Below, piece by piece: positions 7,791 to 22,839 of a stretch of DNA of 30,597 nt; within the stretch, counting starts at the first letter, position 1, and every line of letters begins with the position of its first letter. The position numbers and the translations under genes were made by a program. The DNA comes from Acidobacteriota bacterium (GTDB lineage Bacteria > Acidobacteriota > Vicinamibacteria > Vicinamibacterales > 2-12-FULL-66-21): positions 1 to 30,597 of the forward strand of contig JANOJK010000540.1 of the NCBI GenBank assembly GCA_031408165.1. Direction: 5' to 3'. The notes beneath the pieces were generated by a model. That model was not told where the DNA came from and ran no database searches. It worked only from the letters and a program-made list of their open reading frames with translations.

Positions 7791-7806
7791 AGCAACATCA
7801 GTGCCG
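7791..7806 (-). promoter_or_regulatory. Sigma54 -24/-12 promoter for mtrA-mtrB
   Basis: The minus strand reads CGGCAC-TGATG-TTGCT: GG-N10-GC, matching TGGCAC-N5-TTGC. Correct orientation, about 90 nt upstream of the mtrA start. Confidence 0.7.
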
Positions 7807-7927
7807 CCGGTCGTCATCGGATCGTTTCAGCGGGATTCAGGAAGCAATCTGCGGGACCGTCGGACCTGCGGGAAAGGCAGAGTCGGCTTTCCCAACGCGA
7901 ACAACCGGGTACACCGCGGCGCCGCGT

Positions 7928-7937
7928 CGGGAACCCG
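7928..7937. promoter_or_regulatory. Palindromic motif CGG-RAAY-CCG, copy 1 (candidate activator site)
   Basis: CGGGAACCCG in the mtrA/hypF divergent intergenic region. The same 10-mer pattern recurs upstream of three other sigma54 promoters. Confidence 0.45.
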
Positions 7938-8086
7938 TCGTCACCTGCCCCTCGACACCGCTCATGCACAGGAAGAGCATGAACAACGGGCCGGATCGCG
8001 GGCCACGCGCCGCCCCGAGCACGGGCCGATTTCCCGGGCCCGGAATCCGCCCCACCCCTCCGCGAAGTAGTCCCCCGCGCCCCCGC

Positions 8087-8096
8087 CGGAAACCCG
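8087..8096. promoter_or_regulatory. Palindromic motif CGG-RAAY-CCG, copy 2
   Basis: CGGAAACCCG within GCCGGAAACCCGGCA (8085-8099), which matches 16469-16483 at 14 of 15 positions. About 60 nt upstream of the hypF -24 box. Confidence 0.5.
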
Positions 8097-8158
8097 GCAC
8101 GGGCCCCCGATCACCCGGCCATCCACCCGTTCTGCCGCTGAAAGCGCTCCTGCCTCCG

Positions 8159-8174
8159 TGGCACCGGCCTTGCC
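8159..8174 (+). promoter_or_regulatory. Sigma54 -24/-12 promoter for the hyp operon
   Basis: TGGCAC-CGGCC-TTGCC is a near-consensus match with exact GG-N10-GC spacing, just upstream of hypF. Confidence 0.8.
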
Positions 8175-20065: not shown

Positions 20066-20897
20066 GCTCGCCCCCGACGCCGCACCCGAGCGGCACGTGC
20101 TGCGGTTCGACCGCCTCGATCGGACGCTCCACGGGTTCCTGATGCTCAGCTTTCTGGGCCTGGCGGCGACCGGCCTGCCGGTGCTGTTCAGCGACGCCCC
20201 GTGGGCGCCGCGCATGGCGCGGGTGCTCGGTGGCTACACCGTCGTCCACCTGATGCACCGCGTGTTCGCGACGGTCATGATCGGGGTGTTCTCCGTGCAC
20301 GTGTGGCGCCTCGTCACGCGCGTGGCCATCCGAAAGGACTACGGCATCTTCTGGGGGCCGCGATCGATGGTCCCCCAGCCGAAGGATCTCGCCGACATGT
20401 ACGGCCACTTCCGATGGTTCCTGGGGCTCGGCCCCAGGCCGGCGTTCGACCGGTTCGCGTACTGGGAGAAGTTCGACTACTGGGCGGTGTTCTGGGGGAT
20501 GGCGATCATCGGCGGGTCCGGCCTGATGCTGTGGTTCCCCGAGGCGTTCGCGCGCGTGCTGCCAGGCTGGGTCTTCAACATCGCGCTGCTGGTGCACGCC
20601 GAAGAGGCGCTGCTGGCCGCCGGTTTCATCTTCACCATCCACTTCTTCAACAGCCACCTGCGGCCCGAGAAGTTCCCGATGGACATGGTCATCTTCACCG
20701 GCCGCGTGACGGAGCGGGAGCTGCAGGTGGAGCGGCCGGCGGAATACGCGCGGCTGGCGGCGGCCGGGCCGCTGCCGGATGCGGGGCCTCCCTCCGCCCG
20801 CGTGTGGATGGCCGGCCGCGTGATAGGCTCCGCCGCAGTGATTCTCGGCCTGGCGCTCGTCGGATTGATCCTCTACGCGGTAGCCCCTCACCTATGA
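20058..20897 (+). CDS. Di-heme cytochrome b, FdnI/HydC type (CbcL-like cytochrome b module), 279 aa
   Basis: Start ATG 20058, overlapping the upstream stop. TM histidines (TLHGF, LMHRVF, LVHAEE, TIHFFNSH) and the motifs FDRFAYWEKFDYWAVFWG and HLRPEKFPMD. Confidence 0.88.
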   Translation: MSELAPDAAPERHVLRFDRLDRTLHGFLMLSFLGLAATGLPVLFSDAPWAPRMARVLGGYTVVHLMHRVFATVMIGVFSVHVWRLVTRVAIRKDYGIFWGPRSMVPQPKDLADMYGHFRWFLGLGPRPAFDRFAYWEKFDYWAVFWGMAIIGGSGLMLWFPEAFARVLPGWVFNIALLVHAEEALLAAGFIFTIHFFNSHLRPEKFPMDMVIFTGRVTERELQVERPAEYARLAAAGPLPDAGPPSARVWMAGRVIGSAAVILGLALVGLILYAVAPHL

Positions 20898-22240
20898 AAC
20901 GACACCCCCTGTCCGTCGCCGGCGTGGCGATTGTCACGCTCAGCGCCGTGATGTTCCTGTTCGTGCTGCTGCTCGACGTGTTCGGGCTGCACACCAACCC
21001 GTATCTGGGCATCGTTTTTTTCCTGATCCTGCCGATGATTTTCATTGGCGGGCTGCTGCTGATCCCGCTCGGTATCTATTTCGAGCGCCGCCGCACGGCC
21101 AAAGGTCTCGCGCCGCGCGGCTGGCCACGGCTCGACCTGAACGATCCCGTCCACCGGCGCGGCGTCCTCGCCGTCGCGGCGCTCACGCTGGTGAACGTGA
21201 TGATCGTCTCCCTCGCCGCTTACCGCGGCCTGGAGTTCATGGACTCGCCGCAGTTCTGCGGTCAGGTGTGCCACACCGTCATGGAGCCGGAGTTCGTCGC
21301 GTACCAGGAAGGGCCGCATTCCCGCGTGCGCTGCGTGGACTGTCACATCGGCCCCGGGGCGCCGTGGTTCGTGAAGGCCAAACTGGACGGCACCCGGCAG
21401 GTGCTCGCGGTCATGCGCGGCACCTACTCGAAGCCGATCGGCACCCCGGTGCACAACCTGCGTCCGGCGCGCGACACCTGCGAGCAGTGCCACTGGCCCG
21501 AGAAGTTCCACGGCGACAAGGTCGAAGTCATCCGCGAGTACGGGAACGACGAGAAGAACACCGAGTCGGTCACGCGCCTCCTGGTGCACGTCGGCGGCGG
21601 CAGCGAGCTCCTCGGCACCGCGTCGGGTATTCACTGGCACATGAACGTCGCCAACGAGATCGACTACATCGCGACCGACGAGAAGCGGCAGATCATCCCG
21701 TACGTGCGCATGAAGGATCGGCATGGCACCGTGCGCGAGTTCCGGGCGCCCGGCGTGACCGACGAACAGATCGCAAAAGGGGAGCGGCGGCGGATGGATT
21801 GCGTGGACTGCCACAACCGCCCCAGCCACCCCTTTTCGGCATCACCCCAGCGCGCAGTGGACGAGGCGATTGCGCGCGGGGAGATTCCGCGCTCGCTCCC
21901 GTTCGCGCGCCGGGAGACCGTCGAGGCGCTGAAGGTGGGGTACGCCACCCGCGCCGACGCGGAACGGGACATCGCGACGCGCATCCGGACCTTCTACGGC
22001 CAGAACTACGCCTCGCTGGTCCCCTCGCACGGCACCCAGATCGACCAGACCGTCCTCACCGCTCAGCGGCTCTACGCGCGCAACGTGTTTCCGGGAATGA
22101 AAGTGACCTGGGGCACGCACGAGAACAACCTCGGGCACACCGACGCGCCGGGCTGTTTCCGTTGCCACGACGATCAGCACAAGACCGCCGACGGCCGCGT
22201 GATCAAGCAGGACTGCGACCTCTGTCACGACCTGCAGTAA
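20894..22240 (+). CDS. NapC/NirT-domain inner-membrane multiheme cytochrome c, ImcH-like (448 aa)
   Basis: Start ATG 20894. Three N-terminal TM helices and six heme motifs (CGQVCH, CVDCH, CEQCH, CVDCH, CFRCH, CDLCH). Also NLRPARDTCEQCHWP, GIHWH and NVFPGMKVTWGT. Confidence 0.88.
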   Translation: MKRHPLSVAGVAIVTLSAVMFLFVLLLDVFGLHTNPYLGIVFFLILPMIFIGGLLLIPLGIYFERRRTAKGLAPRGWPRLDLNDPVHRRGVLAVAALTLVNVMIVSLAAYRGLEFMDSPQFCGQVCHTVMEPEFVAYQEGPHSRVRCVDCHIGPGAPWFVKAKLDGTRQVLAVMRGTYSKPIGTPVHNLRPARDTCEQCHWPEKFHGDKVEVIREYGNDEKNTESVTRLLVHVGGGSELLGTASGIHWHMNVANEIDYIATDEKRQIIPYVRMKDRHGTVREFRAPGVTDEQIAKGERRRMDCVDCHNRPSHPFSASPQRAVDEAIARGEIPRSLPFARRETVEALKVGYATRADAERDIATRIRTFYGQNYASLVPSHGTQIDQTVLTAQRLYARNVFPGMKVTWGTHENNLGHTDAPGCFRCHDDQHKTADGRVIKQDCDLCHDLQ

Positions 22241-22334
22241 GAAGGTCAGGCAGCGGGACGATCACGACGGCTCACGGCTCATCACGAAGTGTTCGTGGCC
22301 CTGGTGAGCTTCGTATGATTTCCGTGTGACGGGC

Positions 22335-22790
22335 TCAGCCCTCCGCGGTCAGCGTGATCGCATTGGAGACGCCCCGCACGCCGGCGAGATACTTCACCGC
22401 GTTCTCCGCTGCGGCGCGCTGGTGCATCCAGTGGACGGTGCCGCCGAGCGTGATGAAGCCGTCGCTCACGACCGCCTGCACCCCCTCGGGAATGGCCACG
22501 TTGTTGCGCAGCCGGTGCAGCGCGTCCCGTGCGATATCGGTGTCGGTGCGCTCGTTGGGCGTCTTCACGTGGAGATCGCTCGCCACGCTCCTGACGCCGC
22601 GCACGAGCATGACGGCGCGCTCCGCGGCCACTTTCATCGCCAGCGAGTCCACCCGGCCCGTCAGCGTGACCACGCCGTCCTCGGCGGCCACGCCGATCTC
22701 CCACTCGTGGACGGCGGGATCCCGATCGATTGCGGCCAGCGCCGCGTCGCGCAGAATCTCACACCCCGGGGGGGCCACTGCATAGACCAT
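22335..22790 (-). CDS. Dual-BON domain protein (151 aa) with no signal peptide
   Basis: Start corrected to ATG 22790 (AAGGAG upstream). Two BON repeats: GVVTLTGRVDS...GVRSVASDL and GFITLGGTV...GVRGVSNAI. Confidence 0.9.
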   Translation of the reverse strand: MVYAVAPPGCEILRDAALAAIDRDPAVHEWEIGVAAEDGVVTLTGRVDSLAMKVAAERAVMLVRGVRSVASDLHVKTPNERTDTDIARDALHRLRNNVAIPEGVQAVVSDGFITLGGTVHWMHQRAAAENAVKYLAGVRGVSNAITLTAEG

Positions 22791-22823
22791 GGTCGTCTCC
22801 TTCTGACTGTATGGCCCCGCTAT

Positions 22824-22839
22824 CGCAAGGGGGCTGCCA
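22824..22839 (-). promoter_or_regulatory. Sigma54 -24/-12 promoter for the BON gene
   Basis: The minus strand reads TGGCAG-CCCCC-TTGCG with GG-N10-GC spacing. The predicted start site near 22813 leaves a leader of about 23 nt that contains the SD. Confidence 0.72.

Follow-up and report, generated by a model that had tools for sequence, protein, structure and literature searches.

Predicted sigma-54 promoters of hydrogenase maturation, porin-cytochrome, radical SAM and BON-domain genes in an uncultured Vicinamibacterales bacterium, and a palindrome that may join them in one regulon

Four sigma-54 promoters are predicted in a 30,597-nucleotide (nt) stretch of DNA (the window) from an uncultured bacterium of the order Vicinamibacterales (phylum Acidobacteriota), where they head the porin-cytochrome genes mtrA-mtrB, the hydrogenase maturation operon hypFCDEAB, a variant radical SAM gene and a BON-domain (OsmY-like) gene. 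To judge from their sequences, the four promoters are very probably real. On balance, we consider it probable, with a good deal of reserve, that all four motifs function as sigma-54 promoters and that those of hypF and the radical SAM gene, and probably those of the BON gene and mtrA, belong to a single regulon, which would be marked by a 14-nt palindrome (PAL) and driven by a bacterial enhancer-binding protein (bEBP). The window is contig C847 of a 5.35-Mb metagenome-assembled genome that is 86% complete (GC content 68.6%). The close relatives of its genes are found in other uncultured Vicinamibacterales genomes, an order known mainly from soil and sediment metagenomes, and the DNA of the window occurs in freshwater sediment metagenomes; a search for RNA runs listed none.

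The site of mtrA-mtrB lies at positions 7791–7806 on the minus strand (CGGCAC-N5-TTGCT, 15.7 bits) and that of hypFCDEAB at 8159–8174 on the plus strand (TGGCAC-N5-TTGCC, 17.5 bits); both are situated in the gap 7700–8192, between mtrA (minus strand) and hypF (plus strand). The site of the radical SAM gene (16513–16528, plus strand, 13.4 bits) is in the gap 16406–16540, which separates this gene from a short-chain dehydrogenase/reductase (SDR)/epimerase gene, and the site of the BON gene (22824–22839, minus strand, 17.9 bits) is in the gap 22791–22851, between BON (minus strand) and maf (plus strand). An initial annotation of the window had described four intergenic motifs pointing at the adjacent genes: their coordinates, strands and exact GG-N10-GC spacing all hold, and the gene boundaries confirm both their location and their direction. 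The sites have 0–2 mismatches to the core TGGCAC-N5-TTGCW. The C of the –12 GC is at 7792 (mtrA), 8173 (hypF), 16527 (radical SAM) and 22825 (BON), and transcription is predicted to start near 7780, 8185, 16539 and 22813, respectively. The predicted leader of mtrA is about 81 nt long, and for BON a GGAGA ribosome site lies between the predicted start at about 22813 and the ATG at 22790.

A loose consensus (TGGCACN5TTGCW, at most 2 mismatches) has 9 matches in the window versus 9.6 in shuffles, i.e., no excess. For this reason, a position weight matrix trained on this genome and the contrast between coding and intergenic DNA were used instead. The matrix was derived from 80 co-oriented intergenic sites of the genome, with the window contig excluded. 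To delimit coding DNA, a codon-bias model was applied, which called 5058 genes that make up 88.6% of the genome. Over both strands of the window, the four sites are the top four (13.4–17.9 bits), and the fifth-ranked match scores 10.4. Genome-wide, TGGCAC-N5-TTGC with GG and GC fixed and 0 mismatches is absent from the coding DNA (4.7 Mb), and intergenic DNA has 10 co-oriented copies and 1 anti-oriented copy; with 1 mismatch, the counts for coding, co-oriented and anti-oriented DNA are 69, 76 and 12, the coding DNA being about eight times larger. Expressed as sites per Mb in coding, co-oriented intergenic and anti-oriented intergenic DNA, the densities are 6.5, 68.5 and 13.2 at 12–14 bits; 1.4, 44.5 and 4.4 at 14–16 bits; and 0.2, 66.7 and 11.0 at 16–18 bits. 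At the scores of the four sites, the co-oriented intergenic density is therefore 10 to 300 times the coding density. Thus, the four sites stand well above the genomic background, and each of them, on sequence alone, is likely to very likely real. The genome has 221 sites of at least 12 bits, from which about 1.3 would be expected per 30.6 kb; the window holds 4, a mild clustering.

The promoters have been conserved to different degrees. The hypF site is found at the same place, with 13.4–20.5 bits, in six relatives: G009, G007 and G005 (same genus), G013 and G022 (same family) and G025 (same order). In the alignment of these promoters, the GG and GC cores, TGGCA and TTGC are kept in all six relatives and TTGCC in five, whereas the five-base spacer varies. 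The radical SAM site (12.6–16.7 bits) is also present in six relatives (G006, G005, G007, G016, G024 and G021), and its offset from the ATG is constant within 2 nt. Four relatives have a BON site 43–49 nt before the ATG (G003, 18.2 bits; G007, 16.6; G009, 12.8; G005, 10.9), followed by a conserved ribosome-binding site. The genus has no close orthologue of mtrA; the most similar ones have 65% and 59% identity (G023 and G026) and those on metagenome contigs 56–72%. Among seven regions upstream of mtrA orthologues, two hold a strong site (17.9 and 16.2 bits, both on metagenome contigs), three have a weak one of about 9 bits, and in two there is none of at least 8.5 bits.

Alignments of the relatives' promoters revealed PAL, a 14-nt palindrome of the form GCCGG-WWWW-CCGGC, which was scored with a symmetric matrix trained only on copies from other genomes. 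A perfect copy, GCCGGAAACCCGGC, at 8085–8098 (18.7 bits) is a candidate enhancer, with its centre 68 nt upstream of the GG of the hypF promoter and 286 nt from the GG of the mtrA promoter; it has been kept about 70 nt upstream of the –24 box in G009, G005, G022 and G025. A second perfect copy, GCCGGAAATCCGGC, at 16469–16482 (21.0 bits, the highest score in the genome), is 38 nt upstream of the GG of the radical SAM promoter and has been kept about 38–60 nt upstream of the –24 box in G006, G005, G007 and G009. Among 27 loci of the radical SAM gene, a PAL was found before the gene in 5, all from close relatives, and in none from more distant Vicinamibacterales. A third perfect copy (23132–23145, 18.7 bits) lies inside the coding sequence of maf, 300 nt from the GG of the BON promoter; 186 nt downstream of this copy is a weak sigma-54-like site that faces ccmE. 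The copy is one of only three coding matches of at least 18 bits in the genome, and PAL is also found inside maf in G009 and G005. Two further copies score at background level: GTCGGGAACCCGTC (7926–7939, 8.5 bits), 128 nt upstream of the mtrA GG, and GCCGGGAACCCGTA (22881–22894, 10.1 bits), about 50 nt upstream of the BON GG. At positions similar to the former, the mtrA orthologues of G023, G026 and L057 have PAL-like sites of 12–15.8 bits upstream, and at the position matching the latter G009 has a perfect PAL.

Throughout the genome, strong PAL matches are concentrated in non-coding DNA: 15 of those with at least 18 bits are non-coding and 3 coding, i.e., 24.5 versus 0.6 per Mb, and below 14 bits there is no enrichment. 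With the window contig left out, 12 of 31 intergenic PALs of at least 14 bits have an outward-pointing sigma-54 site of at least 10 bits within 320 nt, compared with 7.3% for random intergenic positions (binomial estimate about 1e-6). A shorter pattern, CGGRAAYCCG (CGG-RAAY-CCG), was tried as the enhancer and rejected: it is enriched in the window (5 copies versus 0.74 expected), but outside the window it and the control patterns are found close to sigma-54 sites with about equal frequency.

The genes found behind PAL and sigma-54 sites elsewhere in the genome include those for a hydrogenase. On contig C750 (locus L181), a sigma-54 site of 18.6 bits is accompanied by a series of PAL-like repeats, among them PALs of 14.7 and 15.8 bits and further half-matches. 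It heads the operon of a Hyb-type uptake [NiFe] hydrogenase, with genes for the small subunit, a HybA-like ferredoxin, a HybB-like membrane subunit, the large subunit and a maturation protease; the operon is divergent from a gene for a 1194-residue pyruvate:ferredoxin oxidoreductase. On contig C773 (locus L131), the order is a short bEBP gene, a small radical SAM gene, mtrA2 and mtrB2, divergent from hemN-hemH-hemY; PALs are at 2943 and 4882. One PAL, with a 14.4-bit sigma-54 site, precedes mtrA2-mtrB2, and a second (18.7 bits) lies between the bEBP gene and hemN-hemH-hemY. This layout has been conserved in G005 and in G007, in the latter about 25 kb from the hyp island. On contig C481, a PAL of 18.9 bits and a 12.5-bit site head an operon for a histidine kinase and an NtrC-type regulator. 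In the islands of G007, G009 and G005 that correspond to the window, hypF, the radical SAM gene and the cytochrome genes again have the pair of PAL and promoter in front of them, and so does BON in G009; in G007, no PAL of at least 14 bits was found before hypF. In G013, G017, G023 and G024, perfect PALs among those listed are located immediately ahead of hypF, of the radical SAM gene, of mtrA-like genes and of the gene orthologous to that of the C773 bEBP.

The machinery that such promoters need is present. A 481-residue open reading frame (ORF) on contig C802 encodes full-length RpoN with its activator-interacting (AID), core-binding (CBD) and DNA-binding (DBD) domains, and 35 regions of the genome match Sigma54_activat with more than 140 bits, corresponding to about 35 full bEBP genes; sigma-54 is heavily used by this organism. 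The initial annotation had stated that neither rpoN nor an activator gene is in the window, which is borne out, both being located elsewhere in the genome; no bEBP gene was found in the window or beside the Hyb operon. Because about 35 bEBPs are present, sigma-54 alone does not define a regulon. By the standard mechanism of the family, a bEBP opens the closed complex of sigma-54 polymerase. Here, the sigma-54 holoenzyme would form a closed complex at the –24/–12 elements of each promoter; a bEBP dimer would bind PAL and oligomerise into an AAA+ ring; and the ring would use ATP to remodel and open the closed complex.

The best candidate for this activator is the short bEBP of C773. It consists of an AAA+ sigma-54 interaction domain and a Fis-type helix-turn-helix only, and has no sensor domain. 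The bEBPs of the PspF type likewise have no sensory domain, and the domain composition of the C773 protein is like that of PspF; it differs in scoring 273 versus the equivalog cut-off of 443 bits and in its gene neighbourhood, which has no psp context but a small radical SAM gene, mtrAB and haem genes. In NCBIfam, the candidate bEBPs have only generic matches, below every equivalog cut-off, that of FhlA included. Within the genus, perfect PALs number 7–18 in the genomes that have an orthologue of this bEBP and 2–5 in those without one.

How far this amounts to one regulon can now be weighed. The initial annotation proposed that the island is switched on together. In favour of this are the conserved PALs at the hypF and radical SAM promoters and the PALs at the Hyb operon and mtrA2-mtrB2; the case is weaker for mtrA and BON, the proximal copies of which are at background level. 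The combination of PAL and sigma-54 site at hypF, the radical SAM gene, the Hyb operon and mtrA2-mtrB2 makes a regulatory link between hydrogenase and porin-cytochrome genes plausible. With their strong, conserved PALs, the hypF and radical SAM promoters are likely to be members of a PAL regulon. For the BON promoter membership is plausible, in view of its degenerate proximal copy, the perfect PAL 300 nt away in maf and the perfect PAL in G009. For the mtrA promoter it is possible, considering the hypF PAL 286 nt away in the divergent gap, the PAL-like sites of the orthologues and the clear membership of mtrA2.

Several observations weigh against a common regulon. Ten of the 18 perfect PALs have no sigma-54 site of at least 10 bits within 320 nt, and several perfect PALs are directly after gene ends, like small hairpins. 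At several promoters, the centre of PAL is only 19–70 nt upstream of the GG, closer than the 80–150 bp at which classical enhancers are typically found. The PAL-like sites near mtrA and BON were rejected as evidence in their own right, matches of 8–10 bits showing no intergenic enrichment. Other PAL-linked genes are functionally mixed (a pyruvate:ferredoxin oxidoreductase and a CusB-like protein, both weaker cases of PAL with a sigma-54 site, and a two-component system). There are three bEBP loci with a PAL nearby (C773, C481 and C243), and hence several candidate activators. The hyp island is likewise missing from the genomes without the candidate bEBP; the co-occurrence of bEBP and PALs is therefore not discriminating, and the relatives are not independent samples. 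Furthermore, the initial annotation regarded the back-to-back promoters of mtrA and hypF as a sign of a regulatory link; this argument is not supported, as none of the other genomes examined has mtrAB beside hypF. Such adjacency was found neither in G023, G026 and five metagenome contigs with a region upstream of mtrA nor in the islands of G007, G009 and G005.

Alternatively, the four sigma-54 promoters may be real but each be served by its own bEBP and its own signal; PAL would then be bound by some other regulator (a repressor, or a global factor for redox state or anaerobiosis) or would form a structural hairpin, and the island would not be a single regulon. Separate control is indeed the default, given about 35 bEBPs for 100–200 predicted promoters, and it would account for the promoters of mtrA and BON having no good proximal PAL, for PALs as near as 19–38 nt to the –24 element at some promoters, for the perfect PALs without a sigma-54 partner and for the lineage-specific adjacency of mtrAB and hyp. 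We nevertheless regard it as rather unlikely: even when the window contig is left out, sigma-54 sites accompany PAL about five times as often as they do random intergenic positions, and in several genera PAL has been retained along with the promoters of hypF, the radical SAM gene, the cytochrome operon, mtrA2 and the bEBP gene. The hairpin version is possible for some genomic copies of PAL, which could be terminators, but does not suit the two strong PALs of the window, as these are in divergent gaps, where a terminator has no role. More radically, the motifs could be chance matches to GG-N10-GC in GC-rich DNA, the genes using other promoters. The count of the loose consensus, no higher than in shuffles, would agree with this, and a simple sigma-70 scan, which found nothing, is uninformative at 68% GC. 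This explanation is very improbable when set against the 0.2–6.5 sites/Mb in coding DNA versus 44–69/Mb in co-oriented intergenic DNA at the observed scores, the rank of the four sites as the top scores of the window, and the fixed positions of three of the four in relatives while the spacers vary.

Tentatively, as a possibility for which we would claim less than for the regulon itself, one sensor-less bEBP acting via PAL may switch on a whole hydrogen-to-outside electron route in uncultured Vicinamibacterales, several of the mRNAs being leaderless or nearly so. The route would comprise the uptake hydrogenase together with its maturation genes, the multihaem cytochromes of the inner membrane and the periplasm, the MtrAB conduits of the outer membrane, haem synthesis and, perhaps, the maturation of cytochrome c.

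The short leaders concern hypF and the radical SAM gene. The N-terminus of HypF (MRIFHFD) has been conserved among relatives, with changes at third codon positions, which implies that the start codon is the GTG at 8193 and that the predicted leader is only about 8 nt long; hypF has no ribosome-binding site. In the radical SAM gene there are 13 nt from the –12 C to the ATG, a spacing kept within 2 nt in six relatives, and the transcript is predicted to be leaderless-like, starting at about 16539, 2 nt before the ATG at 16541. Throughout the genome, 12 of 103 sites of at least 13 bits are separated from the called start codon by 11–15 nt, counted from the –12 C, and 13 nt is the commonest spacing. 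Recurrent leaders of 2 to 9 nt after sigma-54 promoters would be an unusual arrangement of promoter and translation start.

Two weaker sites may be seen as internal promoters. Before the small ORF at 18089 and the cytochrome c gene, a decayed site (18071–18089, plus strand, TGGCCA-N5-TTGAC, 5.3 bits) is at the place where G007, G009 and G005 carry a sigma-54 site of 16.4–20.7 bits together with a PAL; here, the PAL has 10.4 bits and the promoter 5.3. Relative to the same three genomes, the small ORF after the radical SAM gene (region 17790–18091) shows a deletion. The cytochrome genes of the window probably depend on the radical SAM promoter. Inside maf, a weak sigma-54-like site (23324–23338, plus strand, 10.3 bits) faces ccmE. 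G009 has a similar site of 11.3 bits, spaced identically from the PAL in maf, and in G005 the PAL is present alone. Together, the maf PAL and the 10.3-bit site may serve to transcribe the cytochrome c maturation genes from within maf.

The genes of the window, assigned to families with Pfam and NCBIfam, are arranged around these promoters as follows. On the minus strand are mtrB (4458–6755), which encodes a porin of the MtrB/PioB family, and mtrA (6758–7699, ATG at 7699), which encodes a decahaem cytochrome of the DmsE family. The plus strand then has hypF, hypC, hypD, hypE, hypA and hypB (8193–14058), followed by a gene of unknown function (14051–14701). The SDR/epimerase gene (14816–16405) is on the minus strand. 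The genes behind the third promoter had been described as a cytochrome operon, and cytochrome genes do lie downstream; the first gene, however, is the variant radical SAM gene (16541–17776, plus strand), which encodes no cytochrome. It is followed on the same strand, within 17790–22240, by two small ORFs and genes for a cytochrome c, a multihaem cytochrome, a cytochrome b and an NrfH-like multihaem cytochrome. The BON-domain gene (22335–22790, ATG at 22790) is on the minus strand, and maf (ATG at 22852), ccmE, ccmF and further genes follow on the plus strand from 22852.

The genes hypF and mtrA-like genes are on one contig, 6–55 kb apart, in G007, G017, G022, G023, G024 and G025, which represent several genera of the family. 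Hydrogenase maturation and porin-cytochrome genes therefore recur as loose neighbours, and their direct adjacency is unique to this genome among those examined. No SDR/epimerase gene was found in the corresponding islands of G007, G009 and G005, and the position of the gene between the hyp operon and the radical SAM gene is probably the result of an insertion; its match to a known domain covers only the N-terminal 230 of 529 residues. A degenerate fifth promoter had been proposed to face this gene (16449–16434, minus strand). Instead of the GG that is invariant in such promoters it shows AG, its score of 7.8 bits is at background, and the gene it faces is missing here in relatives, so that it is probably not functional; at its place G007 has a divergent 15.4-bit site, which faces a different gene.

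Upstream of hypF there is a second conserved block (8050–8075; CGCG-N-A-S-TAGT-CC), about 100 nt before the –24 box and common to G009, G007 and G005, which could be a second protein site or a bend. On another contig (C1084, 313–328, minus strand), the sequence on either side of a sigma-54 site is almost the same as at the hypF promoter (CCTCCGTGGCA...TTGCCACC); the site faces a 73-residue ORF without a family match, beside two-component genes.

The proposed regulon has counterparts in better-known bacteria. In the formate regulon of E. coli, FhlA activates the sigma-54 promoters of hyc and hyp-fhlA. The arrangement proposed here is similar in that a sigma-54 promoter precedes the hyp operon and hydrogenase structural and maturation genes would share one bEBP via upstream sites. 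It is different in that the enzyme is of the Hyb uptake type and not a formate hydrogenlyase, no FhlA equivalog was found, the upstream palindrome is new, and multihaem cytochromes, MtrAB and haem genes would also be covered. In Cupriavidus necator and related Proteobacteria, HoxA and HupR, members of the NtrC family, activate [NiFe] hydrogenase and hyp genes, in C. necator via sigma-54 promoters. The likeness here is that hydrogenase and hyp genes would be under an NtrC-family activator, for which there is a candidate; in contrast to these systems, neither such a gene nor a regulatory hydrogenase lies beside the operons, the best candidate has no receiver domain, and the phylum is Acidobacteriota. 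The RpoN regulon of Geobacter sulfurreducens is reported to include cytochromes of extracellular electron transfer, e.g. OmcB, encoded by omcB (PMC2725144). Cytochromes would be common to both regulons, but here the predicted promoters stand directly before MtrAB-type genes and have a palindrome in common with hydrogenase genes. A literature search found nothing on gene regulation in Vicinamibacterales or on such a regulon in Acidobacteriota. The novelty would lie in the phylum and the palindrome, in leaders this short, and in the predicted combination of MtrAB conduits and haem genes with an uptake hydrogenase.

The promoter and enhancer motifs can be used to locate the regulon in other genomes assembled from metagenomes and to read metatranscriptomes from sediments. 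As sigma-54 promoters are portable, the switch could be rebuilt in E. coli. If the proposed regulon is true, these bacteria may couple the oxidation of hydrogen to extracellular electron transfer, with the route from one to the other switched on as a unit.

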